Below, one piece after another: positions 1-14,900 of a stretch of DNA of 64,000 nucleotides. How positions within the stretch are numbered: position 1 is the first letter of the stretch; every line of letters starts with the position of its first letter. Origin of the DNA: Alphaproteobacteria bacterium (GTDB lineage Bacteria; Pseudomonadota; Alphaproteobacteria; UBA828); contig CBDCRW010000003.1 of assembly GCA_965221125.1 (NCBI GenBank), forward strand, positions 1 through 64,000, in the 5' to 3' direction. The position numbers and the translations under genes were made by a program. The notes below the pieces were generated by a model that made no database searches, was not told the DNA's origin, and saw only the letters and a list, made by a program, of their open reading frames with translations.

Positions 1-3000
1 GCGGTCCTCGCCGCCCCGGCCGCCGCGCAGACGCCCAACGCCGACGGCTCCTACACGGTGTCCCAAGGCTGGCCGCTCAAGCCTTCGGGCCTCGAGGGCG
101 GTGACAAGTTTCGGTTGCTCTTCGTTACTTCCACGAGGCGCAACGCGCAGTCGAGCAACATCGACGATTACAACACTTTTGTGCAGGACAGGGCCGCGGC
201 CGGGCATACGGCCATCCGTCTCTACAGCGCGCAATTCAGGGTGCTCGGCTCGACCTCCACGGTCGATGCGCGCGACAACACCGAGACCACCGGAACGGGC
301 GTGCCGATCTACTGGATGGATGGGCAGAAAGCTGCGGACAACTACGCCGACTTCTATGACGGCACCTGGGACAGTGGCAGCCACTCGGTTAATGAAGACG
401 GGGCATTTAAAAGGGCGTTTGTGTGGACGGGCAGCAATGCAGATGGGACAAAATTCAACAATCAATATCTTGGCGCCGGTACGGTGAGACAGGGTTCCGT
501 GCTCTATGCTGCGCTTTCCCATGGTCAGTTTGCGTCCAACGCTACAAGATCCTTATATGCCCTCTCTCCGGTGTTCCAGGTGGAGCCACCCCCCGCCGAG
601 CTGTCCCTGATCTGGACGGAGACCATTCCGGCACCGCCCGACCCTAACCCGAACCTATCGACGGGCCGTCCTGTTGCGAAGCAGGTCAAGGAGGGCGATT
701 CGGGCACGAGGGACGTGCATTTCTACGTCCGCACCGAGCGTCTGCATTCATCGAAGCTGCCGTTCCGTGTGTGCGTGTCGGGCAACGCCACGCAGTCCAC
801 CACGAACAGCCCGCGGCCGGAAGACGGGGACGACTACCAGCTGGTGGTGGACAATGCGGTGCAGGGCCGGTGCGTCGACACGTCGATCCCGGCCAATACG
901 CGCTACAAGCGGATGACGATCCGGGTTCTCAACGACGACCGTCTGGAGGACCGGTTCCGGGACACGGAGCAGGTGCTCCTGACCCTGTCGCAGGCTCCGG
1001 GCAGTCCGCTTCCCTCGCCGTACAGGATCGTCTCCCGGGAAAGCGGGTACTGGAAGCTGCAGCTGAACATCGTCGACGACGACTTCGGTCAGCAGCCGGT
1101 CCAGTTTTCTCCCGCCGAGTACGAGATCGTCCACGCGAAGTCGGTGGTCGGCCGCGCGCAGACAAGGCGCGTGAAGGAGGCGCACCGCGGCGGGCGCGTC
1201 GGGCTCATGTTCACGAAGGGGCCGGACTACACCCCCTACACCGTGACCTACAGGGTGGTGCATGCCGAGAGCACGGCGACCTACGGCGCCGACTACACGC
1301 TGGTCGGCTACAACCGGAACACCGACCGGGGCACGATCCGGGTGCCGCGGCCGAGTGAGCGGCAGGGCGGCGCCGCCCTCCGGGTGAACGTCGTCGACGA
1401 CCGCCGGGTCGAGGGCGAGGAGCAGTTCGTCATCGAGATGGTGAGTGTCTCGAGCCCGTTATGGGTGAACAAGGAGAACGACCGCCACAAGCTCTCCATT
1501 AAGGTCGACGACAACAGCCCGCGGAGCGAGCTGAATTTCGACTGGCTGGAGCGGACCGTGCAGGAAGGCCACGGGGCCGACACCCATGACGTCCGGGTGT
1601 CGCTGCGGCCGCAGCGCGGGTCGAACAGCGATCCCCGGCTGCCCGAGGACACCCACTTCGAGTATTGCGTGGAGAGTTCCGCCACGCTGGGGACGGAGTA
1701 TCAGAGACTCTACCGTCCCGCCACGCCGGGTTCGGACTACGAGATAACCAACCGTGCCGGCGACTTCGTCGACCGGACCGGGGGGACGGAGTGCTGGCTC
1801 GCCACCATCCCGGCGGGCCAGACGACGCTGCGCCTGATGACGCTCCGGGTTCTTTCCGACAAGGACATGCGGGAGCGGCCCGAGCGGGTGACGGTTCGCC
1901 TGAAGCCGAGCACGGTGTCGGCCAAGCCGACCTCGGGCTTCATGGGCATCGTGCCCATCCCGCCCAGGGGCCAGGCCCAGCCGCCCTACACGTCCTCGAT
2001 GCTGATCATCAAGGACGACTTCCCCTTTGTGCGGGTCGAGCTGTCCGGCATCGACGGGTCGGGAAGGCTGCTTTACGACGTGCGGGTCACGAGCGGCTGG
2101 ACGGTGGGCTACCCGAGGATTCACTGGGTGGTGGAGGACGACAGCAGCGGCACGATCGGGAGCGGCTCGTTCTCGTTCCAGAGGGGGCAATACCGCCCTT
2201 CCAGGACGGTGCGCTTCAAGCCTCCGCTCTATGATGCGTCGCATAACGGCTATATGATTTTCAGGCTGACGGACGGCGAGTACCGGCTGGCGGATCCCTC
2301 GCACGGAACCGTCTGCTTGCCGCTCGGCTTCCACGGTTCGTGTCCCCAGCTCCAGACGCCGGGCAGCAGCGACGACGCTGTCGAGGTCCCGGACACGCCG
2401 GTCGCCAACGTCCAGGTGACGGCGGTCGACGCCGCCAGCGCGACGGTGACGTGGGACGCGGTGGAGCACGCAACGTCCTACCGGGTGGAGTACGAGTCGA
2501 CCGGCACCCTGGCGTATCAGGGGAACTACGTTCAGGGCGCCTCGAACGGCCACACCGGCACGAGCTGGACGTTCACCCACAATGCCGCCGAGGCCATGAC
2601 GCTCACTGTGACCGTGACGCCGGAGGTCCGGGAGGACGGCAATGTGCAGCTGTTCGACGACCTCGCGGGGACGGCGACCATCGACGTGGCGCCCGCCGGG
2701 ACGCAGGACACCGTTCAGGCGCACGGCTGCGATCTGACATCGGTCAAGGCGGACGTGAACCGCTATATCGGGGAGACGCAGTACGGTAATGCGCACGTGG
2801 CGCGCTGGAAGCAGGCACTGGCCGGGCTGAACGAAGAGACCGGCGGCATGACGGCGGCGCAGGCGCGGCAGATGATGGCGACGTATTCGCCGGGCCGCTG
2901 GCAGCCGGTGGTGGACGCGCTCGACTGCCTGGAGGAAGCTGCCGCGGCGCAGCCGGAGACGCCGGCGGCGGTTCCCGAGGTTACGGTCTCGGGCGGCAGC

Positions 3001-5979
3001 GGGGTGACGGAGGGTGCCTCGGCGTCCTTCACCGTCACGGCGACACCCGCGCCTGCCGCACCGCTCGCGGTGACGCTGACGGTGGGCCAGAGCGGGGATT
3101 ACGCCGCATCGGGCGAGACCGGCACGCGGCAGGTCACCATCCCGACCGGGGGCAGCGTGGCGATAGAGGTCGCGACGGCGGACGACGCCGTGGACGAGCC
3201 GGACGGCTCGGTGAGCGCGACGGTCGAGGCCGACACGGGCTACACGGTCGGCGGCGCCGGCACAGCCTCGGTGGCCGTGGCCGACGATGACGACCCGGTT
3301 CCGGACCCCGTGACGCCCGAGCTCCGGCTCTCGGCCGGGAGCCCCGTGGACGAGGGCGGCAACGCGGTCTTCACCGTCCATGCCGACCCGGCGCCGGCGG
3401 CGGAGCTCACGGTCGCCTTCACCGTCGCCCAGACCGGCGACATGCTGAGCGCGCCCGGCGCGGGCAGCCGGCAGCTGACGCTGGCGGCGGGCGCGACAAG
3501 CGCGACGCTCGCCCTTGCCACGGCGGACGACGGCGTGGACGAGCCGGACGGCTCGGTGAGCGTCACGCTCGATGCGGGCGCGGGCTACACGGTGGCGGCG
3601 GGCCAGGCGGCCGGCGCGGTCGTGGTGCGCGACAATGACGAGCCGGTCATAAGCATCGCCGGTGGAGCCGGCGTGACGGAGGGAGCCCCGGCCTCGTTCA
3701 CCCTCACGGCGAACCCGGTGCCGCACGCGGCGCTGACGGTGAGCCTCGCGGTGATCCAGAGCGGGGACTACGCGGCTTCGGGCCAGACCGGCACGCGGCA
3801 GGTCACGATCCCGACCGGGGGCAGCGCGTCCTTCGAGGTCGCGACGGAGAACGACACGGCGGACGAGCCCGACGGCTCGGTCACGGCGACCCTCACGGCC
3901 GGCAGCGGCTACGCGGTGGCGGCGTCGCCCAATGACGCGGCCTCTGTTTCGGTCGCGGACGACGACGTGGCGGCGGCGGGCGTGCCGACGCTCTCGGTGA
4001 ACGACGTCGAGGTGAAGGAGGGTCCGTACCGGCGGGTCGAGTTCACGGTGACGCTCAGCAAGGCGTTGGAGAAGGGCGCCTGGTTCTACTACCGGGTGCG
4101 GGAGTCGAGCCCGGTGTCGGCGAAGCGGGGCGTGGACTTTTCGGCCTCTGCCGGAAAGAAATTTGCGTCCATGAGGCCGGGCGCGACCGAGCACCGGATC
4201 ATGGCGGCCCTGGTGATCGACGACAGCCACGACGAGGATCCGGAGACCTTCGAGATCGTGCTTTCGGACGCGCACGGCGCGGCGATCGCCGACGGGGTGG
4301 GCGTGGCGACGATCGTCAACGACGACCCGATGCCGGCGGCGTGGCTCGCGCGGTTCGGTCGCACGGTGGCGGAGCAGGCGCTCGACGGCATTGCGGGCCG
4401 CATCGCGGCGCCGCGCGAAGCCGGTGCCCAGGGGACGATCGCAGGCCAGTCCCTGAGCTTCGGAACGGGCTCGGGGGCTGACGGCGCGGCCAACGGGTTC
4501 GGGGCGAGGTCCTTCGGATCGTTGTCCGGGGCGGCGAACGACAATGCCGCCCTTGGCGGCGCCGGTCTCTCCGGCAGTGGCCTCGGCTCGCAATCCGGGA
4601 CGGGCCTGCTTCTGGTATTGTCCGAGTTCGGCACGCACGTCGAGGACCCCGGATCGGGTCCGGCTTTCGGCGGCGGCCATGGGCTGGACGATGCCTACGG
4701 GCCGGGCGAATCCCGCACCGTGACGTCGCACGAGCTGCTGCTGGGCTCGAGCTTCACCGCGACGGGGGAGCAGGACGGCAGCGGCGGCAGCCTTGCCTTC
4801 TGGGGCCGTGCGGCGCAGTCGAGCTTCGACGGCCGCGAGGGCACGTTCTCGCTCGACGGCGAGACGACCACCGCCATGCTGGGCGCGGACTACGCGCGCG
4901 GCAACTGGCTGGCCGGGCTCGCGCTGATGCAGAGCAGCGGCGAGGGCGGCTACAACGATAGCGGCATCGGTCCGCAGCACTGTCCCGACGACATGGACCC
5001 CGGCATGATGGAGTACCTGTGCGGCGGCGCGGTGCAGGAGGGCGACGGCGACGTTGAGGCGTCGCTGACGGCGGCGGTTCCCTATGCGGCCATCCAGGCC
5101 TCGGAGCATCTCAAGCTCTGGGGCTCGCTGGGCTACGGCACGGGCGAGGTGACGCTGAAGCCCGCCATGGGCGGCTCTCTCAGCTCCGATATCTCCTGGA
5201 CGATGGCGGCGGCAGGCGCGCGCAGCGACCTTGTGACGCTGTCCAAGGAGGGGAGCGGCCTTGCGCTGGCGCTGACGTCGGACGCCTTGTGGGCGCGGAC
5301 GAGCTCGGAGAAGACGCACGAGCTTGCGGCGTCGGACTCCGACGTGACGCGGCTCCGGGTCGGCCTGGAGGGCAGCTACGCCATCGCCACGGAGGGCGAT
5401 GGCCATCTCACGCCCAGGCTCGAGATCGGCGCGCGCCATGACGGCGGCGACGCCGAGACCGGCTTCGGTGTGGAGCTCGGCGGCGGCATCGCCTGGGTCG
5501 ATCCCGCGATGGGGCTCAGCCTCGATCTCTCGGGCCGCACGTTGATCGCGCACGGTGACGACGACCTGGAAGACGAGGGCTTCGCGGCCTCGATGGTCTT
5601 CGACCCCGATCCGGACACCGAGCGCGGTCTGTCGCTCACGCTGCGCCAGGACTGGGGCGGTTCGGCACAGGGCGGTCTCGACGCGCTGTTCGCGACCGAC
5701 CCGCTGTCGGACCGTGCGGGCACGGCCGAGGCGACCAGCCGCTGGCAGGCGGAGGCGGCGTACGGCCTCCCGGCCTTCGGCGGGGCCTTCACCGGCAGTC
5801 CGCATGTCGGGCTGGGGCTTGCCACGGGCTCGCGCGACTACACGCTCGGCTGGCGGCTGTCGCCCGCGGCCAATGCCAACGCGCCCGATGTCTCCTTCGG
5901 GGTAAAGGCGACGCGTCATGAGAGCGACGGGGCGGAGCCTGTGCATACCACCGGGCTGGAGGGCGTTCTCCGATGGTAG
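1..5979 (+). CDS. Large autotransporter/adhesin (5'-partial): N-terminal lectin/endostatin-like domain, Calx-beta repeats, FN3-like domain, C-terminal beta-barrel
   Basis: Frame is open from base 1 (AVLAAPAAAQ resembles a signal-peptide end). Repeated DD-x-x-x-E-x-D Calx-beta motifs, VTWDAV..ATSYRVEY FN3 motif, AWLARFGRTVAEQ linker, amphipathic barrel ending in W. Confidence 0.85.
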   Translation, partial: AVLAAPAAAQTPNADGSYTVSQGWPLKPSGLEGGDKFRLLFVTSTRRNAQSSNIDDYNTFVQDRAAAGHTAIRLYSAQFRVLGSTSTVDARDNTETTGTGVPIYWMDGQKAADNYADFYDGTWDSGSHSVNEDGAFKRAFVWTGSNADGTKFNNQYLGAGTVRQGSVLYAALSHGQFASNATRSLYALSPVFQVEPPPAELSLIWTETIPAPPDPNPNLSTGRPVAKQVKEGDSGTRDVHFYVRTERLHSSKLPFRVCVSGNATQSTTNSPRPEDGDDYQLVVDNAVQGRCVDTSIPANTRYKRMTIRVLNDDRLEDRFRDTEQVLLTLSQAPGSPLPSPYRIVSRESGYWKLQLNIVDDDFGQQPVQFSPAEYEIVHAKSVVGRAQTRRVKEAHRGGRVGLMFTKGPDYTPYTVTYRVVHAESTATYGADYTLVGYNRNTDRGTIRVPRPSERQGGAALRVNVVDDRRVEGEEQFVIEMVSVSSPLWVNKENDRHKLSIKVDDNSPRSELNFDWLERTVQEGHGADTHDVRVSLRPQRGSNSDPRLPEDTHFEYCVESSATLGTEYQRLYRPATPGSDYEITNRAGDFVDRTGGTECWLATIPAGQTTLRLMTLRVLSDKDMRERPERVTVRLKPSTVSAKPTSGFMGIVPIPPRGQAQPPYTSSMLIIKDDFPFVRVELSGIDGSGRLLYDVRVTSGWTVGYPRIHWVVEDDSSGTIGSGSFSFQRGQYRPSRTVRFKPPLYDASHNGYMIFRLTDGEYRLADPSHGTVCLPLGFHGSCPQLQTPGSSDDAVEVPDTPVANVQVTAVDAASATVTWDAVEHATSYRVEYESTGTLAYQGNYVQGASNGHTGTSWTFTHNAAEAMTLTVTVTPEVREDGNVQLFDDLAGTATIDVAPAGTQDTVQAHGCDLTSVKADVNRYIGETQYGNAHVARWKQALAGLNEETGGMTAAQARQMMATYSPGRWQPVVDALDCLEEAAAAQPETPAAVPEVTVSGGSGVTEGASASFTVTATPAPAAPLAVTLTVGQSGDYAASGETGTRQVTIPTGGSVAIEVATADDAVDEPDGSVSATVEADTGYTVGGAGTASVAVADDDDPVPDPVTPELRLSAGSPVDEGGNAVFTVHADPAPAAELTVAFTVAQTGDMLSAPGAGSRQLTLAAGATSATLALATADDGVDEPDGSVSVTLDAGAGYTVAAGQAAGAVVVRDNDEPVISIAGGAGVTEGAPASFTLTANPVPHAALTVSLAVIQSGDYAASGQTGTRQVTIPTGGSASFEVATENDTADEPDGSVTATLTAGSGYAVAASPNDAASVSVADDDVAAAGVPTLSVNDVEVKEGPYRRVEFTVTLSKALEKGAWFYYRVRESSPVSAKRGVDFSASAGKKFASMRPGATEHRIMAALVIDDSHDEDPETFEIVLSDAHGAAIADGVGVATIVNDDPMPAAWLARFGRTVAEQALDGIAGRIAAPREAGAQGTIAGQSLSFGTGSGADGAANGFGARSFGSLSGAANDNAALGGAGLSGSGLGSQSGTGLLLVLSEFGTHVEDPGSGPAFGGGHGLDDAYGPGESRTVTSHELLLGSSFTATGEQDGSGGSLAFWGRAAQSSFDGREGTFSLDGETTTAMLGADYARGNWLAGLALMQSSGEGGYNDSGIGPQHCPDDMDPGMMEYLCGGAVQEGDGDVEASLTAAVPYAAIQASEHLKLWGSLGYGTGEVTLKPAMGGSLSSDISWTMAAAGARSDLVTLSKEGSGLALALTSDALWARTSSEKTHELAASDSDVTRLRVGLEGSYAIATEGDGHLTPRLEIGARHDGGDAETGFGVELGGGIAWVDPAMGLSLDLSGRTLIAHGDDDLEDEGFAASMVFDPDPDTERGLSLTLRQDWGGSAQGGLDALFATDPLSDRAGTAEATSRWQAEAAYGLPAFGGAFTGSPHVGLGLATGSRDYTLGWRLSPAANANAPDVSFGVKATRHESDGAEPVHTTGLEGVLRW
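2974..3970 (+). repeat. Three tandem ~110-aa Calx-beta-like repeats within the adhesin
   Basis: Near-identical DNA at 3087 and 3756 (ccagagcgggga..ggcacgcggcaggtcac..atcccgaccgggggcagc); gacgagcc.gacggctcggt recurs at ~3193, ~3538 and ~3862. Confidence 0.8.
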
Positions 5980-6054
5980 GGACGGTACGCCGGGATAGTT
6001 CCTGTGAGCGGCGGCCTCGCGGCCTTCGGCGCGGTCACCGCGTGGCGCACCCGC

Positions 6055-6255
6055 AAGCGGCACCCCGACTACCGCGAGCAGTGGCTGGCGGCGGCGGGGC
6101 GCACGGGACGCGCTGAGGGCGGGCCCGTCCCGGTTCGCACCCAGACCGAGGCCGACCTCGAGGCTGTGTCCTGGGGCCTGCTCGCTTGGGAGGACCCCTT
6201 CGTGGACGACGGCCCGGCCTCGACCCCTTCCGGGCAGACGCCACGATACCCTGCC
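6055..6255 (+). pseudogene. Remnant of a DUF6499/DUF2285 (FseA-like) ICE-type regulator
   Basis: KRHPDYREQW...VRTQTEADLEAVSWGLLAWEDP resembles the RRNPxYR..WGL..EDP pattern; no proper start; apparent frameshift near 6223. Confidence 0.5.
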
Positions 6256-6293
6256 GGGCGCCGGGCTCGGATAGCGTCATCCGGCTGTGGCCG

Positions 6294-6368
6294 TTACAGG
6301 TCCATCAAGGTGGCGATCTCCTCGCCGACCCTTTCTGCGGCGGCCTCGATGTCGCGGTCTCCGAGGTG
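6294..6368 (-). pseudogene. Detached 3' end of tyrosine integrase 2 (HLGDRDIEAAAERVGEEIATLMDL*)
   Basis: Removing the IS21 and one AGGTG copy rejoins ..LRYAHL in frame to GDRDIEAAAERVG..TAA, a typical integrase C-terminal helix. Confidence 0.9.
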
Positions 6369-6462
6369 TGCCGAATCTCACGAAAGTAGCCACCCAATCT
6401 CAGGCAAAGTAGCCACCGAATCTCATCGAAAGTAGCCACCCAGTCTCACCAAAGTAGCCACC
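6369..6462 (+). repeat. IS21 left end, four ~22-bp transposase-binding repeats
   Basis: Four copies of A(A/G)TCTCA-N2-3-AAAGTAGCCACC. Confidence 0.9.
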
Positions 6463-6544
6463 CCCTCGGGGCGGCGGCTTTTGGAGCGACTCAGAGCGCC
6501 GTCCTACCCGTCGGATTTCGCGATTCATCCGAGGGGGGGCTGGG

Positions 6545-8080
6545 ATGGCACGGGGAAGGCTGCCGATGAGAAAGGTGAAGAAGGTTCTTGGGTTCCATTT
6601 CGAGGAGGGACGTAGCGCCCGCGCGATCGCAACCCACTGCGGTATGGCGCGTCGCTCGGTGGCGTCGGTCTTGGAGCGCTTCGCGGCATCTGGTCTGAGT
6701 TGGCCGGAAGCCGGCGACATGGCCGACGAGGCGCTGGAGGCGACACTGTTTCCGGCGCCCACGCAAGCCGCGCCGCAGCAGCAGGAGGTGGACTGGGCGA
6801 AGGTCGAGACGGACCTGTCCGAGCCGGGCGTGACCCTGAAACTACTGTGGGAGGAATGGCGCGAGACCCATCCCGGCGGCATGAGCTATCCGACCTGGTG
6901 CCGCCGCTTCCGCGAGTGGCGGCCGCGCCGGGACGCGACGATGCGCCAGAACCGCCGTCCCGGCGAGAGGCTGTTCGTCGATTACGCCGGCATGACGATC
7001 CCGATCATGATCGACGGGGGCGAGCACGAGGCGCAGGTGTTCGTGGCCTCGATGGGCGTCTCGGGGCGGCTCTACGCCGAGGCGACGCTCAGCCAGAAGA
7101 TCGAGGACTGGTGCGCCTCGCACGTGCGCTGCTTCGAGGATATGGGCTGCGTGCCGCAGGTCGTGGTGCCCGACAACATCAAGCCGGCGGTGATCAAGCC
7201 CTCGCGCTACGAGCCGGTCCTCAACGAGACCTACGCCGATCTGCTCGACCACTATGACGTTCGGGGCTTCCCGGCGCGCGTGAAGAAGCCGCGCGACAAG
7301 GCCCTGGTCGAGAACGGCGTGCTCCAGGGCGAGCGCTGGATCCTGGCGCCCCTGCGCAAGCGCGTCTTCCATGACCTGGCGTCGGCAAACCGGGAGATCG
7401 GCGAGCAGGTCAGGAAGATCAACAGCCGGCCCTATGCCGACGGCACCGGCGAGAACCGCTACGGCCGCTTCGAGAGCGTCGACCTCCCCCACATGAAGCC
7501 GCTGCCGAAGCGGCGGTGGCAACGCACGGTATGGCGCAAGAACACGGTCCACCGCGATTATCACATCGCCATCGATTACCACTTCTACTCGGTGCCTCAC
7601 GAGCTCATCGGCAAGGAGGTCGACGTCCGCCTGCGCGACAACCTGATCGATGTCTTCGTTCGGGGCCGGCACGTCGCCAGCCATATCCGCAGCTCAGCCA
7701 GGGGCCGCGCCACCACCGTCGAAGAGCACAAACCGAAGGCGCACCAACGCGCCGGCGTCGAGGCCACCCGCGCCCACCTGGAGAAGAGCGCGCGCGATAT
7801 CGGGCCCCATGTCCACGCCTACGTCGTCGTGCTCATGAAGCGGCAGAACAATCCGGAGTTCGGCTTCCGTGCCTGCTACGGCGTCCTCCGGCTGGCCAAA
7901 AGCTACGAGCAGGACCGCTTCGACGGCGCCTGCCGCTACGCGCTCGAGCTCGGCACGCGGAGCTACCGCGGGCTCGAGAACATCCTGCGCACCGGCGCCG
8001 ACCGCGTCGACGCCGAGCAGGAACCCGACACCATGCCCATCGATCATTCCAACATCAGAGGACCGGAGGCCTACCGATGA
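6545..8080 (+). CDS. istA: IS21 transposase IstA
   Basis: N-terminal HTH, DDE motifs FVDYAG / VPDNIK / KALVENGV, C-terminal HSNIRGPEAY. Confidence 0.96.
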   Translation: MARGRLPMRKVKKVLGFHFEEGRSARAIATHCGMARRSVASVLERFAASGLSWPEAGDMADEALEATLFPAPTQAAPQQQEVDWAKVETDLSEPGVTLKLLWEEWRETHPGGMSYPTWCRRFREWRPRRDATMRQNRRPGERLFVDYAGMTIPIMIDGGEHEAQVFVASMGVSGRLYAEATLSQKIEDWCASHVRCFEDMGCVPQVVVPDNIKPAVIKPSRYEPVLNETYADLLDHYDVRGFPARVKKPRDKALVENGVLQGERWILAPLRKRVFHDLASANREIGEQVRKINSRPYADGTGENRYGRFESVDLPHMKPLPKRRWQRTVWRKNTVHRDYHIAIDYHFYSVPHELIGKEVDVRLRDNLIDVFVRGRHVASHIRSSARGRATTVEEHKPKAHQRAGVEATRAHLEKSARDIGPHVHAYVVVLMKRQNNPEFGFRACYGVLRLAKSYEQDRFDGACRYALELGTRSYRGLENILRTGADRVDAEQEPDTMPIDHSNIRGPEAYR

Positions 8081-8838
8081 CCGAAAACCCCGTCTCCCAC
8101 CCGCTGGCCGAGCGCATCGCCTCGCTGCGCCTGCCAGGCATGCACGCCGCCTTCCTCGAGCAGGTGGCGCGCAACGATCTCGGCGACATGCCCTTCGAGG
8201 ATCGGCTCGCGCTGCTGATCGACCGCGAGATCGCAGAGCGCCGTTCCAGGGCCCTGCAGCGGCGCCTCAAGAGGGCACAGCTGCGCCATCAGGACGCCTG
8301 CTTCGAGGATATCAACCTGAGCCGCCCGCGCGGCCTCGACCGCAGCCTCGTGCTCGGCCTCGCAGACTGCGCCTGGGTCCGCAACGGCGCCAACATCCTG
8401 GTCACGGGTCCGTGCGGCACGGGCAAGAGTTGGATCTCGTGCGCCCTCGGCCACAAGGCGTGCCTCGAGGGTCACATCGCCCAGTACCACCGCGTGCCCA
8501 GGCTACTCACCGAGCTGCGCATCGCCCATGGCGAGGGCACGATCCCGAAGCTCTACCGCGATCTCGCCCGCATCGCGGTGCTGATCCTTGACGATTGGGG
8601 CATCGCGCCCATCGATGCGGCTCGCGCGCGCGATCTCCTCGAAATCCTCGACGACCGCTTCGGCCGGCGCTCGGTGATCGTCACCAGCCAGTTGCCCGTG
8701 GCCGACTGGCACCGCCAGCTCAACGACCCCACCGTCGCTGACGCCATCCTCGACCGCCTCGTCCACGGCGCCATCCGCATCGAGCTGCACGGCACGTCCA
8801 TGCGCATCGACGACGCTGCCGCCGGAACAAAGGCATGA
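8077..8838 (+). CDS. istB: IS21 helper AAA+ ATPase IstB
   Basis: ATGA overlap with istA; Walker A GPCGTGKS, Walker B LILDDWG, ADAILDRLVH. Confidence 0.96.
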   Translation: MTENPVSHPLAERIASLRLPGMHAAFLEQVARNDLGDMPFEDRLALLIDREIAERRSRALQRRLKRAQLRHQDACFEDINLSRPRGLDRSLVLGLADCAWVRNGANILVTGPCGTGKSWISCALGHKACLEGHIAQYHRVPRLLTELRIAHGEGTIPKLYRDLARIAVLILDDWGIAPIDAARARDLLEILDDRFGRRSVIVTSQLPVADWHRQLNDPTVADAILDRLVHGAIRIELHGTSMRIDDAAAGTKA

Positions 8839-9084
8839 GCGCGACTACAGAGCGCCGCGCTGCGCGCGGCGCGAACGTCGCTCCGCTCCGGGGCGTCGGA
8901 GAGGCGGGGCCGGTGGTGCCAGGCATGGTGCGCGCGCGCCGCCAGACTCGTGAGGGGTCTCACGCGTCGCGCGCGCACCATGCTCCACCGCCTTGCCACT
9001 GTGCCTTCGGCGGTGGTACCGATCACGGAGAACTCGCGGAAGGAGAACCGCTGACAACAACGTAACCGCGTCGCTTCGCTCCGG

Positions 9085-9178
9085 GGTGGCTACTTTGCTG
9101 AGATTGAGTGGCTACTTTGGATGAGATTCGCCGGCTACTTCGGGTGAGATTCACCGGCTACATTGGTGAGACTGGGCA
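9085..9178 (-). repeat. IS21 right end, four inverted copies of the terminal repeat
   Basis: GGCTAC(T/A)TT..TGAGA repeated four times, inverted relative to the left end. Confidence 0.9.
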
Positions 9179-10254
9179 AGGTGGGCGTAGCGCAGCGTCA
9201 TCCGGGTGTTGGAGTGCCCCAGCATGCGGGAGACCACGGGCACCGGAACGCCGTTCATCACCGCGTGGCTGGCATGAGTATGCCGGAGATCGTGAAGGCG
9301 CACGTCCTCGATGCCGACCTCGCGCCGGACCCGCTCCCAGAGAGGGAGTATGCGGCCGCGCGGCCGCGAAGGGTCGCGCGGCGAGGGGAACACGTAGGAG
9401 CTCTCCGTGCGCGGCTGGCGTTCGAGGATGCGCCGGGCCTCGGTGCCGAGGGGGATCTTCCTCGGCCCGGTCTTGGTATCGACAAGCACGAGCATGTCGC
9501 CATGAACCTCCGACCGGCGCAGCTCGACGATCTCGCCCCTGCGGCACCCGGTGAGCAGCAGGAGCCGGACAATGTCGGCCTGCTGGCGGAACCTGTTTCC
9601 CTTCGCGGCCTCCCTGTCGAGCGCCGCGTGCAGGCGCTCTACCTCCTCGCGCGACAGGAAGCGGGTGAGCGCCGGGCGGGGGTTCGGCTTGATGCCGCGC
9701 GCCGGGTTGGCGCCGACATGGCCGTGCGCGCCGGCGAAGTTCATGATCTGGCGCAGGAGGGCGAGAGCGTGGTTGGCGTTGCCCGGCGCGGTCCGGCTGA
9801 ACGCGTCGAACCAGCGCCTGACATCGGCCTGGGCGATGCGGTCGAGCGGCTTCGGCCCGAAGGCGGGCAGCAGCCGGGCGTCGAGCAGCGAACGGTAGCC
9901 CTTCCTGGTCGAGGGCTTGCATCGCTCGAATTGAACCTCCCTCCACTCGCCCTCGACGAACTCCCGGAACAGGGGAACGGCCCGCGCAGGCGCCGGTTCC
10001 GTTTCCGGGCTCGCGCGCCGCGCGTGGCACTCCCGGCGCGCCTCCTCGACGCCCATTGCCGAGACCGGGCCGAGCGTCGTCCGCCGCGACCCGTCCGCCG
10101 CTGCCCGCAGCAGGACCCAGCTCTTCCCTCCGGAAGGACGCACCCGGACCCCGAGGCCGGGCATACGGCTGTCCCAGACCGTGTATTCGCGCTTGCGCGG
10201 GCGCAACCGGGCGACCGCCGTATCGGTAAGGCGCACGCGGCGCGCGGCGCTCAT
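9179..10254 (-). pseudogene. Tyrosine integrase 2 (arm-binding N-terminus), interrupted by IS21 near its 3' end
   Basis: YTVWDSRMPGLGVRVRPSGGKSW arm domain; TGCRRGE, TKTG, HDLRHT, LGH, LRYAH catalytic set; IS follows YAHL. Confidence 0.92.
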
Positions 10255-11378
10255 GGCCGGCCCCCAAGCACGATACCGATGGTTTCGGCGGCGTCCATCG
10301 CCATGGCGTCGGCGAAATGAGTATATGCGAGGGTGGTCTGGGGGCTTCGGTGTCCGAGCAGCCGGGCGATGGCGAGAACGGTCTCGCCGTTCTTCAACGC
10401 GATGCTGGCGTAACTATGCCGCAGATCGTGAAGGCGGACATCCCGAAGACCGGCTTCCGAGCGCAGCGCGTACCAGAAGCGGTCGAGGGAGCCCTTGCTC
10501 CGCGGGCCTGCCGCGCGATGTGCGGGAAAGACCCAGCTTCCCTTTCGATCCAGGGAATCGAGAACATTCCTGGCGGGCTGGGAGAGCCAGACGGTTCTGG
10601 GTCCGGACTTGGAGTCCCGGAGGAACAGGCGTCCTTCGCGGTAGTCCGACCATCGGAGCGTGAGGATTTCGTTCTTGCGGCATCCGGTCAGCAGAAGAAG
10701 GCGGACCGCGGCGACCTGCCGGGGATACTGATCGGCGTGGGCCGACAGCCGTTCGGACAGTCTCCGGATCTCGTCGTCGGAGAGGAAGCGCGCGCGCCCC
10801 TTTCGGCGGTATCGCCGGATGCCTCGGCACGGATTGGAGCCCTCGGGACGGAGACCCATGGCCTCGGCCTCGCGCATGATGACGGAGAGCACCGGCATGG
10901 AGCGGTCGGCGGCTACCGGCGTGGCGTGGAGGGATGCGAACCAGTTCTTGACCTCGCGCGCGTCGATGTCGGCGATGGGGCGTTTGGCGAAGTGGGGCAG
11001 GATCTGGTTGCGCAGGTAGTTGCGGTTGACCGTGAGCGTCCCCGCCTTCCAGAGCCGCCGGTGGCGATCGAACGCGGTCTGGGCGACAGTCTCGAAGAGC
11101 GTCTCTTCGGGCAGGGCCGGCGCGGGCTCGCCCCGCCGGATCGCAGCGAGCATCTGGGCCGCGCGGGACCGCGCTTCTGCGACGCTCATCCCGGCGGCAT
11201 CGCCGATGATCTTCCAGACGCGCTCGCCGTCGTACTGGCAGTGGACGAAGAAGCGCTTGCGGCCCGAGGGCAGCACCCTGACGCCGAAGCCCTTGAGCTT
11301 GCCGTCTCGGATGTCGCGGGCGGTCTTGCGGGGATTGAGTGCGGCTATGCGGGCGTCCGTGAGGTTGGTTCTGGGCAT
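10251..11378 (-). CDS. Tyrosine integrase 1 (arm-binding N-terminus)
   Basis: RBS GGAGAA; DGKLKGFGVRVLPSGRKRF; TGCRKNE, SKSG, HDLRHSY, LGH, LAYTH; ATGA overlap with integrase 2. Confidence 0.94.
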   Translation of the reverse strand: MPRTNLTDARIAALNPRKTARDIRDGKLKGFGVRVLPSGRKRFFVHCQYDGERVWKIIGDAAGMSVAEARSRAAQMLAAIRRGEPAPALPEETLFETVAQTAFDRHRRLWKAGTLTVNRNYLRNQILPHFAKRPIADIDAREVKNWFASLHATPVAADRSMPVLSVIMREAEAMGLRPEGSNPCRGIRRYRRKGRARFLSDDEIRRLSERLSAHADQYPRQVAAVRLLLLTGCRKNEILTLRWSDYREGRLFLRDSKSGPRTVWLSQPARNVLDSLDRKGSWVFPAHRAAGPRSKGSLDRFWYALRSEAGLRDVRLHDLRHSYASIALKNGETVLAIARLLGHRSPQTTLAYTHFADAMAMDAAETIGIVLGGRP

Positions 11379-11388
11379 CGCATTCTCC

Positions 11389-11444
11389 CGGTTGCGGTTG
11401 CAGCCGGGGGAACGGACGGTTGCAGCATCCGTCACCCGGTTGCA
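11389..11444. repeat. CGGTTGCA direct repeats upstream of the integrases (candidate arm-type sites)
   Basis: CGGTTGCA at 11395, 11417 and 11437 plus CGGTTGC at 11389. Confidence 0.6.
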
Positions 11445-11487
11445 CGGTGAGGGAGAAAAAGAGACCCTGTGTCAGATAGTTAGCACC

Positions 11488-11874
11488 GAAGGTGCGTCGC
11501 ATGGTGTCGCACTTCGCGAACGCGCAGTCGCTCACTACGCCGATGCAACGGTCCGGGTACTTCGCCGCGAACTTCAGCGCGATCATGCCGCCGGCGGACG
11601 TGCCCATCACGTGCGCCCGCTCGATCTGAAGCGCATCGAGCAGCGCCGCGAGGTCGTCCGCCCAGATATCGAGGTCGTAGCGCATCAGCGGACGGTCGCT
11701 CTGCCCGTAGCCCCGCTGGTCGTAGCTGATGAGCTGGAACGACTCGGCGAGTCCTTCCCAGACCATCGCGAAGTTCTGGCGCCCGAAGAGCGAGCCGCCG
11801 ATCAGCGCCAGCGGGTCGCCTTTGCCCATCAGCTCGTAGTAAATATTGATCCCGTTGGCATTGACCTTCGGCAT
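11488..11874 (-). pseudogene. Alpha/beta hydrolase, 5' half only (truncated by the integrase element)
   Basis: MPKVNANGINIYYE..YDQRGYGQS..GTSAGG nucleophile elbow; family-like sequence stops after ~129 aa, with no catalytic His region. Confidence 0.85.
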
Positions 11875-11978
11875 GACGTGTCCCTCCCGATCACCTGCCC
11901 CCGCCATCCGGCGCGCTGCCGGTTGCACATGCCGGCGCGCGCCCAAGGGCCATGCACCATGATGGACCGGGATCGCCC

Positions 11979-14900
11979 ATGAACCTAGCGCCGGAATGGA
12001 AGGACGCCGCGCGGCCGCCCCTGCCTGCGGACGAGGATGCGCTCGCGCTCTGCTGGGAGCGCTGGCGCGAAAATGCAGAGCGAAGCGAGGATGACGTCCT
12101 CGTCGCGTTCGCCGAAGCGTGCGAGGGCGATGCCAGCGCCAATGCGCTGCTGAGCGCGCTCTTCGGCAACAGCCGCTATCTCAGCCATTGCCTCATCGCC
12201 GACCAGGCATTTGCCCGATTGCTGGTCGAGCAGGGCGCGGAGGCCGCCTACGCAGCTGCCCGCGAGATGGCGGCGGATACTAGTGCCCTGGGCGAGGAAT
12301 CGCGGCAGCAGGTGATGAAGCGCCTCCGCGTCGCCAAGCGCCGCGCCAGCCTCGCCATCGGCATGGCCGACATCGTCTCGGTGTGGCCGCTGGAGCGCGT
12401 CACGGGGGCTCTCTCCGACATCGCGTCCACGACGCTCAGCGCCGTTTGCACCCACCTGCTGCGGAACCTGCACGACCGCGGCAAGCTCGCCCTGCCCGAT
12501 CCGGCAGCGCCCGAGAAGAGCTCCGGCCTCATCATCCTCGGCATGGGCAAGCTCGGCGCGGGCGAGCTCAACTACTCGAGCGACGTGGACATCATCGTCC
12601 TCTTCGACGAGGAGATCGCGTCCGACGCCAGCGGCGACGGCTTGCAGCAGACTTTTGCGCGCCTGGCCCGCAACCTCGTCACGATCATGGACGAGCGAAC
12701 GGCCGACGGATACGTCTTCCGCACCGACCTCCGTCTCCGCCCGGACCCCGGCTCCACTGCGGCCGCCCTCTCGGTCCGCGCCGCCGAGGCCTACTACGCG
12801 ACCACCGGCGAGAACTGGGAGCGGGCCGCCATGATCAAGGCGAAGCCCGTGGCCGGCGACATCGAGGCCGGGAACGGCTTCCTGGAGCGGCTCGAGCCCT
12901 TCATCTGGCGCCGCCACCTCGACTTCGCCGCGATCCAGAACATCCGCGCCATCAAGCGCCAGATCGACGCCCACCGCGGCGGCGGCCAGGTCGCCGTCGC
13001 CGGGCACAACATCAAGCTCGGCCGCGGCGGCATTCGCGAGATCGAGTTCCTCGCGCAGACCCAGCAGCTCATCTGGGGCGGGCGGGATCCGGCGCTCCGC
13101 GTGCGCGGCACGCGCGAGGCGTTCGACCTGCTCGTCGAAGCCGGCCATGTGCGCCGGCAGGCGGTGACGGAGCTGATGGAGGCCTACACCTTCCATCGCA
13201 CCGTCGAGCACCGCCTGCAGATGGCGGACGACCGCCAGACCCACAGCATGCCGGAGGATGACGAGGGGGTCGCACAGGTCGCGACCTTCCTCGGTTTCGA
13301 ATCGAGCGAATCGTTCGCCGAGACGCTCCTGGGCTACCTGAGAACGGTGGAGCGCCACTACACGACACTCTTCGACGACGACGCGACCCTCACGACGTCA
13401 GGCACGCTCGACGTCAGTGCCGAGGGCGACGGCGACGCCACGCTGGAGACCCTCGCGGCGATGGGCTACGCGCACCCCGAGCGCGCGTTCGAGACGCTGC
13501 GCGCCTGGCACGAGGGCCGCTATCGCGCCATGCGGAGCGAGGAGGCGCGCGAGCGGTTGGCCGAGCTGGTGCCGACCATTCTGGACGTCCTGGCCGCGTG
13601 GCCGGACCCCGATTCGGCGCTCGCGCTCTTCGACGGGTTCCTCGCGCGTCTGCCGGCCGGCTCCCACCTCTTCTCAATGTTTGCCGCCCACCCGGAGCTG
13701 TTCGACCTGATCACGGAGATCATGGGCTCGGCACCCCGCCTCGCCGGCTGGCTGGAGCATCGGCCGATGCTGCTCGACAGCGTGCTGAGCCGCGAGTTTT
13801 CCGATCTGGACGTGCCGGACGCCGACGAGCTGGGACCCGAGCTTGCGACCATGGCACGCCGCGGCCTCGTGCGCGTCTTCTACCAGCGCGAGTTCGGCGC
13901 GGCGGAAATGAAAGCCGAGCTTGCCGACGAGGCGCTCCGCGCGCGGGACCTGCAGGATTTTCTGGATGCCGAGAGACGCTGGGCCAACGACAAGATTTTT
14001 CATATCGGCGTCCACATGCTTCGCGGGCTGCTCTTCCCCGTCGAGGCCGCCGTTCCGCTCTCCGATATTGCGGACGCATGCCTCGGCGCGGCGCTCCCCG
14101 TCGTCGCCAAGGCCTTCGCCGCGACGCACGGTCATATTCCGGGCGGCCGCTTCGCCGTGGTCGCGCTGGGCCGGCTCGGCAGCCGGCAGATGACGGTGAC
14201 CGCGCCCCTCGACCTCATGCTCGTCTACGACCACCCGCAGAACGCATCGGAATCCGACGGCCGCAAGGCCCTCAGGCCCGACCGCTATTACGGGCAGTTG
14301 AGCCGGCGCTTCATCGCCGCAATCCGGGCGGCGACGGCGGAGGGCACGCTCTACGACATGGACATGCGCCCGCGTCCCTCGGGCAACGCCGGCCCCATCG
14401 TCACCTCGCTCGCATCCTTCGTGAAGCATTTTGAGGCCGGCGTCCCGGCCTGGCAGCACCAGGCGCTGACGCGCGCGCGCGTGGTCTGGGCGGGGGGCGA
14501 CCTCGGCGAGCGGTTCGAGCAGGCGCGCCGCTCCATCCTCAGCCGGGAGCGTACCCGCGAGGATCTCGTGGCCCAGCTTGCCGAGGTGCGCGAGGACCTG
14601 CGTGGCGACGACCCCGACGAGGACATCTGGGCGGTCGAGCAGAAGCGCGGCGGCCTGATGGACACGGAGTTCATCGCGCAATACCTGCAGCTGCTGCATG
14701 CGGCGGAGACCGAGGACATCCTTGCCGGCACCACGGTCTCCGTCTTCGAGGCCGCGGGCAGCCGGGGTTTGATCGAGCCAGAGGCCGCGCGCGAGCTGGC
14801 CGACGCCGCGACGCTCTGGCACAACCTGCACGGCATCCTGAGCCTGACGGTGGAAGAGCGCTTCGTCGAGGCGACGGCGCCGCCGGCGCTGCTCGCCGTC

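Follow-up and report, generated by a model that had tools for sequence, protein, structure and literature searches.

The first 64,000 nucleotides of contig C3 (CBDCRW010000003.1, from an alphaproteobacterial assembly), referred to here as the window, begin with a giant surface-protein gene, two tyrosine integrases and a hydrolase gene that breaks off midway, raising the question of what kind of mobile element lies here, how far it extends and how it selects its targets. A sequence-only reading had proposed a two-recombinase, transposon-like unit with relaxed targeting that moves surface-adhesin genes. Positions 1-11507 proved to be the right-hand part of a larger element, which is likely an integrative mobilizable element (IME), disabled-looking in this copy, with the same backbone as its relatives. 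Features of the element, its target and its complete relatives are collected in the table.

Table 1. Features of the element and its insertion site (window coordinates unless a contig is named) and sizes of complete relatives.
Feature	Position or size	Strand	Description
Giant surface protein gene	1..5979	+	1992 aa visible; 5′ end cut by contig start inside signal peptide
Displaced intB 3′ end (..HLGDRDIEAAAERVGEEIATLMDL*)	6294..6368	-	Cut off by IS21
IS21-family insertion sequence	6369..9178	+	istA 6545-8080, istB about 8077-8838
intB 5′ portion	9179..10254	-	359 codons, all catalytic residues included
intA	10251..11378	-	375 aa from ATG 11378, arm-type tyrosine integrase; stop overlaps intB start (ATGA)
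Element right end	11379..11497		Conserved GAGAAAAAGAGACCCT (11453-11468) and TTAGCACCGAAGGTGCG (11480-11496)
10-bp direct repeat CGCATGGTGT	11498..11507		Second copy C7:894056-894065, beside other hydrolase half
Hydrolase 5′ half	11498..11874	-	Start 11874; residues 1 to about 127
Hydrolase 3′ half	C7:893605-894063		On contig C7, 10.8 kb from contig end
C6 element	56.4 kb		Repeat TAGGCGGTGT; defence cargo
C4 element	28.3 kb		Cargo type I-E CRISPR-Cas
L044 element	13.9 kb		Complete relative
G011:C3 element	about 29.1 kb		CRISPR-Cas cargo

The minus strand between 9151 and 11378 encodes the two adjoining integrases, IntA and IntB, each of which contains Arm-DNA-bind_3, Phage_int_M/SAM, and Phage_integrase domains. 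The proteins align with 38% identity over 363 aa (E 7e-61), and both retain R (TGCR), K (SK/TK-[ST]GPR), HDLRH, GH, and Y; their genes overlap by 4 bp (10254-10251). The earlier description of paralogous arm-domain integrases joined by an ATGA overlap therefore held, as did the R-K-HxxR-H-Y set reported for each, except that IntB is not intact. An IS21-family insertion sequence, overlooked in that reading, lies between the giant gene and the integrases; it was recognized by matches to IstB_IS21 (E 5.7e-64) and, for istA, to Mu-transpos_C_2 and an HTH domain, and by a flanking AGGTG duplication of 5 bp (6364-6368 and 9179-9183). The insertion splits intB three codons past the catalytic tyrosine, after ...RYAHL, leaving the codons for the native final 22 residues at minus-strand positions 6294-6365 and an intB open reading frame (9151-10254) that reads on to 9151 through eight IS-encoded residues. 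The intact form, 381 aa, is present on contig C2, where the paralogous element has no IS21, and a second, 100% identical copy of the insertion sequence was found at C7:37011-39821. Because this recent insertion removed the final 22 IntB residues, the window's copy of the element is probably crippled. Insertion sequences were often seen immediately after intB in related elements as well.

The interrupted host gene is a chromosomal alpha/beta hydrolase of 276 aa, broken at codon ∼127, and the portion in the window matches its orthologue only to about residue 127-129. C3:11874-11488 encodes residues 1-129 and, in matching orientation, C7:894063-893605 encodes residues 124-276; the gene is uninterrupted, at 276 aa, in L002 and L004, and an orthologue with 87-98% identity was present in all 18 same-genus genomes searched. 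Position 11497 is the last of the element and lies 119 bp from the ATG of IntA; TTAGCACCGAAGGTGCG at this end contains the palindrome GCACC-N3-GGTGC. The claims that the integrases adjoin a mid-gene break in a hydrolase and that the insertion lies within a protein-coding gene were thus both confirmed, and the 3′ half sought in order to define the left end was recovered on C7 together with the second 10-bp repeat. Perfect 10-bp direct repeats bordered five of the six elements that were examined at both ends. Among assembled contigs from four runs, a 481-nt piece spans the right junction without differences; nothing in the same contigs joins the two element ends or restores the hydrolase, which is uninformative either way.

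Adjoining the hydrolase half on C7, the far end of the element carries genes for a MOBF/TrwC relaxase-helicase (TrwC E 5e-75; NCBIfam MobF NF041492, 255.9 bits against a cut-off of 100) and for NikA-like ribbon-helix-helix (RHH) proteins, the latter with weak matches to NikA or MobA. The assembled element spans at least 22.3 kb, from C7:894066-904845 across a gap to C3:1-11497. Direct abutment of the C7 tail and the C3 head was considered and rejected, as the tail breaks off within a zinc-ribbon-repeat gene on the minus strand; C3 begins inside the giant gene, and the gap is real. An IME comprises an integrase and a relaxase or oriT, with no secretion system of its own. The present element has recombinase genes at one end, repeats that split the target, and its own relaxase. 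The relaxase and NikA-like genes at the far end therefore point to an IME instead of a bare transposon, an assignment that also rests on four complete relatives sharing the backbone without a type IV secretion system. The sequence-only reading had noted no relaxase, which is accurate within the window but not for the element as a whole, and its two-recombinase transposon-like unit survives as a conserved pair but not as a relaxase-free one.

In the relatives, the backbone runs from the left end through two or three NikA-like RHH genes, MOBF/TrwC, and variable cargo to intB, intA, and the right end; all four complete members have this backbone and 10-bp repeats. Contig C2 holds a near-copy of the right half without an assembled left half; an open reading frame to its right was briefly considered ParB-like and dropped when Pfam gave no match. 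Left ends are conserved within sub-lineages only. When GAGARAAAGNGACCCT was tried as a marker for ends in general, the genome yielded only four, and a left-end search with TCAGTGCTCAGTGG matched only the C6 copy. For the copy at C7:305732-308100, no exact junction 10-mer for a left end was present within 150 kb, nor any 10-mer with up to two changes in 262-279 kb, and for the G011:C1 element near 422 kb, neither the junction 10-mer nor any left-end motif was present in L105.

In a narrower reading, only the ∼2.4-kb intA-intB module and its conserved end are mobile, as an IS-like two-integrase transposon, and the relaxase and cargo are mere neighbors. Six modules with 97-99% identity occupy six different sites in one genome and have ∼2.4 kb in common; they lose similarity no more than about 60 bp from the intB stop, with unrelated DNA beyond, so the integrase pair could move on its own, and across sub-lineages DNA-level alignment is likewise limited to the integrase module. 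However, perfect 10-bp repeats enclose the relaxase end too in five elements (the four complete relatives, at the sizes in the table, and the present element, at least 22.3 kb), the junction 10-mer was not repeated next to intB at any of 20 loci, and the frequent insertion sequences just past intB could themselves account for the loss of synteny. Movement of the module alone is accordingly judged unlikely.

The alternative of a full integrative conjugative element (ICE), with its secretion genes hidden between C7 and C3, draws on the unassembled gap and on a genome that is 92% complete in seven contigs, yet it appears quite improbable: neither the assembled 22.3 kb nor the four complete relatives, which have matching ends and backbone, include a VirB4-type ATPase or coupling-protein family among their Pfam hits. 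For the IME reading, a VirB4-like gene, coupling-protein genes, and TrwC at C4:596-614 kb, outside the element, are a candidate helper; that the VirB4 profile PF03135 had no match across the source genome, at this completeness, counts against that reading. The sequence-only reading had held that a full ICE or prophage backbone upstream would speak against it; a mobilization backbone is indeed present there, which partly tells against that proposal, although it amounts to neither a full ICE nor a prophage.

With the IME assignment preferred, the relationship between its two integrases can be considered. IntB directly follows IntA at all 20 related loci and at a further 46 of 46 informative loci (66/66), with a spacing of at most about 16 bp in relatives, and in the phylogeny IntA and IntB form two clades, both supported at 100/100 and branching in the same order. 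Because of this invariant adjacency and mirrored phylogeny, the two are regarded, by sequence comparison, as one conserved and co-diverging unit. Plasmids of Shewanella, Vibrio, and sphingomonads carry the two genes in this order too; on the Shewanella MR-1 megaplasmid, the A-B order and a 4-bp overlap are kept, and gene 1 is 38% identical to IntA and 29% to IntB, whereas gene 2 is 41% identical to IntB and 32% to IntA, both with reciprocal matches. That two unrelated islands with one integrase each were stacked by accident at one site, as the well-known tandem accretion of islands and the interpretation of multi-integrase ICEs as composites in the available part of PMC5587801 might suggest, is scarcely credible given the 4-bp gene overlap, adjacency in 66/66 loci, mirrored trees, and the A-B order retained in a gammaproteobacterial plasmid. 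One genome contains ∼18 copies. Related loci were found in metagenome-assembled genomes labeled Alphaproteobacteria or Defluviicoccus, and near-identical DNA was found in sponge metagenomes.

Target choice was assessed from 65 collected junctions, representing 51 distinct ones, 47 of which contain GGTGT, three a version one base off, and one no such motif. GGTGT is all that these 47 have in common and is the family-wide invariant of the repeat. With 51 distinct junctions and only this motif shared by 47, targeting is relaxed, in agreement with the sequence-only reading, and there is no single fixed att site.

The adhesin half of that reading fared differently. The reported intact autotransporter of ∼2000 aa corresponds to a genuine giant gene, but one cut at its 5′ end by the contig and without a Pfam autotransporter match. 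Weak Calx-beta, fn3, and LapA-like repeats were detected in the protein, whose C-terminal 392 aa form a conserved domain; for this domain, neither a Pfam autotransporter match (PF03797) nor a PDB sequence match was found. An AlphaFold2 model of this domain was all-beta at a poor pLDDT of 39.6, and the ESM Atlas gave a language-model feature score of 0.98 and placed all 30 hits in autotransporter clusters; the C-terminus is thus probably a beta-barrel of the autotransporter type. No homologue occurs within ∼16 kb of IntB at any of the 20 related loci, and in the source genome, only two of five close copies (C3 and C2, 95% identical) carry the gene, so this giant, autotransporter-like protein does not belong to the usual cargo and the element is not dedicated to moving adhesins. 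Among the four complete relatives, defence genes or CRISPR-Cas are present as cargo in three, and the fourth carries open reading frames without Pfam hits.

How such an IME might move can be outlined conditionally. IntA and IntB, as translationally coupled paralogues, would combine into a heteromeric recombinase comparable to XerC/XerD or to the TnpA/TnpB of Tn554, recombining the joined ends of an excised circular form with targets that need little beyond GGTGT; the relaxase and RHH proteins would nick an oriT, and a helper type IV secretion system would transfer the circle. Against this scheme, no excisionase was identified, and perfect repeats with variable middle bases are unexpected from conservative tyrosine recombination between unlike sites. 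A tentative extension, which we hold to be possible though somewhat doubtful, is that IntA/IntB represent an undescribed class, an obligate heteromeric arm-type pair distributed from Alphaproteobacteria to Shewanella and Vibrio plasmids that inserts large mobilizable islands at nearly any GGTGT and either leaves or demands a 10-bp repeat. If so, the element would behave as a transposon inside one genome and as an IME between genomes.

The textbook genomic island has one integrase and one att site. Elements with several recombinases, such as Tn554, RIT, SE, and GInt, are to our knowledge few and poorly understood. The family described here uses two integrases and has dozens of natural insertion sites, clear ends, and both complete and minimal (13.9 kb) members, which makes the sharing of work between paired tyrosine recombinases, relaxed target choice, and the origin of identical 10-bp repeats testable. 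The DNA it moves includes CRISPR-Cas loci, defence islands, and genes for large surface proteins, and it interrupts host genes; for genome engineering, a loosely targeted integrase pair that carries as much as 56 kb could be of interest.

No published description of the family was found in the main texts of the literature on paired or tandem integrases, DUF4102, and Defluviicoccus mobile elements, and a paired-integrase, multi-copy, loosely targeted element family of this kind seems to be undescribed. The IMEs taken for comparison are PIMEs, which, in the available part of their description (bioRxiv 10.64898/2026.01.12.698999), likewise have an integrase end, a relaxase, accessory genes, flanking repeats, and a large, variable cargo in which defence systems are frequent, and which, like the complete relatives here, lack a T4SS. 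As characterized there, however, PIMEs carry a single int plus alpA, repA, and trbJ/L, and membership was rejected on this basis: the present element has two obligately paired arm-type integrases and no alpA, repA, or trb genes, inserts into many genes, at a 5-bp motif and not at a single att site, and reaches up to about 18 copies per genome. Tn554 (TnpA, TnpB, TnpC), as covered in the available part of PMC10214605, also places two catalytic tyrosine recombinases side by side at the end of a transposon-like element, but it has a third gene, tnpC, whereas no third gene is conserved here, since conservation ends at the intB stop. The present element further differs from Tn554 in the N-terminal arm-binding domain of both integrases and in its relaxase. 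Tn554 itself uses one preferred site and is not known to leave a duplication.

[quoted passage not shown] SEs are described as gammaproteobacterial, non-mobilizable, and limited to few integration sites, and ginC-ginD blocks as not found in Alphaproteobacteria (PMC10214605, available part). RIT elements share a mobile core of co-transcribed tyrosine recombinase paralogues but, as presented in that source, these form a trio (PMC10214605), in contrast to the two genes in 66/66 loci here. XerC/XerD, also a paralogous pair, provide the working model for IntA/IntB. They are thought to work as a heterotetramer in which each partner cuts one strand pair; Xer proteins act at dif and have no arm domain, and they are usually not encoded side by side. 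The NCBIfam XerC/XerD equivalog models scored only 50-83 bits against cut-offs of 330-335, the best being 83.3 bits for XerD (cut-off 329.6) and 75.6 bits for XerC (cut-off 335.15). Finally, integrases of the CTnDOT/NBU type, as treated in the available part of PMC2817482, resemble the pair in tolerating unlike crossover sequences and in requiring just a short conserved motif next to a variable segment. They act as a single integrase, whereas the present element uses a pair. CTnDOT/NBU elements have different coupling sequences at their two ends, in contrast to the identical 10-bp repeats that border the family described here.

The alpha/beta hydrolase gene beside the integrases has an orthologue in all 18 same-genus genomes searched (87-98% identity), and in the two loci read through (L002 and L004) its product is an unbroken protein of 276 aa, the intact gene holding a single copy of CGCATGGTGT. 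In the genome under study (4.58 Mb, 69% G+C, seven contigs), the hydrolase is split between contig C3, of which the window forms the first 64 kb, and contig C7, where its fragment lies 10.8 kb from the contig tail, and the same 10 bp stand at both junctions; the mid-gene insertion is thus real. Region 1-11,507 begins at a contig end because the window lies at the start of C3, and its gene content was taken from an ORF listing and Pfam. The element, 22,277 bp as assembled, breaks off on C7 within the minus-strand gene of a zinc-ribbon-repeat protein and resumes on C3 within the giant gene, at its signal peptide; since both contig ends are inside genes, at least some sequence is missing between them. 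On the C7 side are genes for a 1725-aa MOBF/TrwC relaxase-helicase (TrwC, E 5e-75; NCBIfam MobF, 255.9 bits, cut-off 100) and a coiled-coil protein, together with small genes of ribbon-helix-helix type that match NikA or MobA weakly. The coiled-coil gene region also has a 335-351-bp direct repeat (95%) at its 5′ end, and the protein of repeated CxxC zinc-ribbon units runs past the end of C7. Sponge metagenome runs from several studies contained contigs matching the integrase pair and the hydrolase/glnE side (window 8800-13000) at 90-99% identity, one piece stopping at 11509, 2 bases beyond the 10-bp repeat.

IntA and IntB, the paired tyrosine integrases at the right end of the element, each contain Arm-DNA-bind_3, central and catalytic domains (Pfam), share 38% identity in pairwise alignment, keep R, K, HxxR, H and Y, and are encoded by genes overlapping at ATGA. 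The sequence-only reading, which had described these twin integrases with their overlap and full catalytic set and a hydrolase broken mid-gene, was largely right on both counts: ORFs, Pfam and alignment agree with the former, and the other half of the hydrolase has been located on C7, with the 10 bp at both junctions. It missed an IS21 element inside intB and the relaxase on the other contig, so that its claim of no relaxase holds for the window and fails for the whole element. The IS21 insertion point lies 3 codons past the catalytic tyrosine (...RYAHL), and an identical copy elsewhere on C7 marks the insertion as recent. Contig C2 has another element of this type, 94.6-94.9% identical, that is without IS21 and encodes an intact IntB of 381 aa with the C-terminal end GDRDIEAAAERVGQEIAALMDL; in the window, the last 22 residues are encoded on the other side of IS21, and the truncated ORF finishes with 8 residues encoded by it. 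In lambda Int, Cre and Xer, the segment past the tyrosine forms subunit-subunit contacts that control cleavage. Because IS21 removes this segment of IntB, the copy in the window is, by analogy, probably immobile. Insertion sequences (IS21, IS110) were found recurrently at or just past the 3′ end of intB in different elements of the family, which suggests a preferred landing spot.

Coordinates of the element, its relatives and associated features (C, contigs of the genome under study; G011, another genome; L, fetched loci)
Feature	Position	Strand	Details
Giant-protein open frame	C3:1-5979	plus	1992 codons; ORF listing; 5′ end missing
Giant-protein C-terminal domain	C3:4801-5976		392 aa
Last 22 IntB residues	C3:6294-6365
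IS21-family element	C3:6369-9178		istA 6545-8080; istB about 8077-8838 (IstB_IS21, E 5.7e-64); 5-bp duplication AGGTG
intB ORF	C3:9151-10254	minus	tyrosine integrase, Pfam
intA	C3:10251-11378	minus	tyrosine integrase, 375 aa, Pfam
Element, C3 part	C3:1-11497
10-bp repeat, right	C3:11498-11507		CGCATGGTGT
Hydrolase residues 1-129	C3:11874-11488	minus	start 11874; first ~127 codons by ORF listing and Pfam
glnE	begins at C3:11952
Hydrolase residues 124-276	C7:894063-893605	minus
10-bp repeat, left	C7:894056-894065		CGCATGGTGT
Element, C7 part	C7:894066-904845
Repeat at coiled-coil gene and zinc-ribbon protein	L011:15995-16752 (= C7:901994-902751); L011:17981-18844
IS21 copy	C7:37011-39821		100% identical
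Insertion sequences at intB 3′ end	C3:6369-9178; L103:4055-5158; L038:3972-6197
Close IntA/IntB pair	C2:4582-6788		94-96%
Close IntA/IntB pair	C6:236298-238535		69-71%
Close IntA/IntB pair	C7:305732-307969		60%
Close IntA/IntB pair	C4:444538-446744		56-60%
Second pair family	C4:11790-14163; C4:213560-215947; C5:9103-11417; C7:17985-20302; C7:62844-65252
C7/C3 element	C7 and C3		repeat CGCATGGTGT; at least 22.3 kb
C6 element	C6		repeat TAGGCGGTGT; 56.4 kb
L044 element	L044		repeat ACGCTGGTGT; 13.9 kb
G011:C3 element	G011:C3		repeat GACGTGGTGT; about 29.1 kb, computed from locus coordinates
C4 element	C4		repeat GTTTCCGTGT; 28.3 kb
Tandem 44-bp units	C6:182281-182368		GCAGTAACATAAGCGATCAGTCAGTGCTCAGTGGCTGACGCTGG
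REP-like palindromes	C4:444390-444430; 472700-472760; 515720-515790; 542760-542830		GAGCGTTTCCGT..ACGGAAACGCTC
Paralogues of C-terminal domain	C2:1-4206; C4:20-28 kb; C4:581-636 kb; C5:731-747 kb; C6:365-371 kb
Candidate helper region	C4:596244-614045		coupling-protein gene 610331-610801; TrwC gene 611229-614045

IntA was followed by IntB at all 20 loci fetched around IntA homologues in two further congeneric genomes, with intB damaged at two of these loci, and at 46 of 47 loci from metagenome-assembled, one-genome-per-species contigs labelled Alphaproteobacteria or Defluviicoccus, the remaining locus ending at a contig edge. When all 27 integrases of the genome under study were placed in a maximum-likelihood tree, the five IntA formed one clade and the five IntB the sister clade (support 100/100 each), both branching identically as (C4,(C7,(C6,(C2,C3)))), so that the two have diverged together as a pair. 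Two overlapping integrase genes on the Shewanella oneidensis MR-1 megaplasmid follow the same order, the first matching IntA at 38% and IntB at 29%, the second IntB at 41% and IntA at 32%, and adjoining A-like and B-like matches occur on plasmids of S. baltica, Vibrio, Polymorphobacter, Novosphingobium and Sphingobium; the pairing is old. The genome also holds five further tandem pairs of a different, phylogenetically separate arm-type family, the first members of which group together in the tree, and this genome seems to favour paired integrases generally.

The right ends of the family aligned well as GAGAAAAANCGACCCT, ~6 bases, GTCAGANAGTTAGCACC, 3-4 bases, GGTGCG, 5-6 variable bases and GGTGT, followed by unrelated flank. 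The 65 junctions examined reduced to 51 distinct ones when loci fetched twice were counted once; GGTGT was present in 47, one-base variants (GGTCT, GGAGT, CGTGT) in three, and neither in one. Flanks in the genome under study were the hydrolase gene and a phytanoyl-CoA dioxygenase gene, both entered mid-gene (the latter at its HxD motif) and identified by Pfam, the 5′ end of a putative old-yellow-enzyme-type oxidoreductase gene (identity by eye), an ORF without Pfam match, and a REP-like palindrome. Copies of an insertion-sequence transposase gene were entered several times at one and the same position, and one junction, in a putative LysR-type helix-turn-helix coding stretch (by eye), was found at four loci. 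With 51 distinct junctions, mostly sharing just GGTGT and some recurrent, targeting across the family is therefore loose, but not random. The REP-like palindromes form a family on C4, and the C4 element has inserted at one of them.

Both ends were sought for six elements, and five had perfect 10-bp direct repeats; for the copy at C7:305732-308100, no partner repeat was found. Conservative recombination between unlike crossover regions is expected to leave unlike sequences at the two ends; with perfect repeats, and with the 3 bases before GGTGT nonetheless varying among six near-identical integrase modules of one genome, either the target is chosen by identity to the joint of the circle or it is truly duplicated. 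In the 56-kb C6 element, the 10-bp repeat at the left end is directly followed by two tandem 44-bp units.

Four complete relatives have one common backbone, with two to three NikA-like genes and TrwC at the left and intB-intA at the right, and no VirB4-type or coupling-protein family was among their Pfam hits. Their cargo consists of a defence island (C5 methylase, HerA, PLD, SNF2 helicase, AddAB-like, OLD/UvrD and SbcC-like genes) plus insertion sequences in the C6 element, type I-E CRISPR-Cas in the C4 element, type I CRISPR-Cas in the G011 element, and five ORFs without Pfam match in the L044 element. The giant protein is confined to the C3 and C2 copies, and none of the 20 related loci had a homologue within ~16 kb of IntB, so adhesin transport is not the trade of this family. 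The proposed adhesin-moving transposon was thus wrong twice, the element being mobilizable by its relaxase and adhesins not being its usual cargo.

The giant protein is one of a large family: its C-terminal 392 aa matched 1629 proteins at E 0.001 or better among 8000 candidates scored, and eight additional regions of the genome matched the giant protein. Pfam and PDB sequence searches gave no placement of this domain, and its AlphaFold2 model was all-beta and unreliable (pLDDT 39.6); by language-model features it resembles autotransporter beta-domains (score 0.98, 30 of 30 hits), and the giant protein is likely an autotransporter. At least 1629 homologues bear the domain, preceded by passenger parts that vary (Calx-beta, LapA or LRR).

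IntA and IntB, being translationally coupled, co-diverging and catalytically complete, may act as a heteromer on asymmetric sites. These would be GGTGT on the target side and, on the element side, the palindrome GCACC-N3-GGTGC adjoining the spacer. The relaxase module would then make the excised circle transferable by a helper secretion system. On C4, a possible conjugative helper region contains a VirB4-like gene (TIGR00929, 194 bits, under the cut-off; PF12846, 50 bits) along with coupling-protein and TrwC genes; the PF03135 profile had no match in the genome. Four giant autotransporter-like paralogues ring this region. Six integrase modules in one genome, 97-99% identical and differing in the 3 bases immediately before GGTGT, have only about 2.4 kb in common, which keeps alive the alternative that the integrase pair is able to move alone, rather than as part of a mobilizable element.

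No description of paired arm-type integrases was found in the openly accessible portions of the literature, including those of PMC8138268, PMC5587801 and bioRxiv 10.64898/2026.01.13.699239 and 10.64898/2026.01.12.698999. The core idea of the sequence-only reading, a two-recombinase unit with relaxed targeting, has held (pairing at 20/20 and 46/47 loci; 51 distinct junctions), and IntA/IntB stands as an undescribed unit of this kind, broader than could be seen from the window. Judged from its assembled parts, the element is not a member of the ICE, Tn554, RIT, SE (strand-biased circularizing), GInt or Xer systems, a defining feature of each having been looked for and found lacking (passages of PMC10214605). 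On either side of the C7-C3 gap, the element agrees with an integrative mobilizable element (IME) in the features that could be tested, and it probably works like one.
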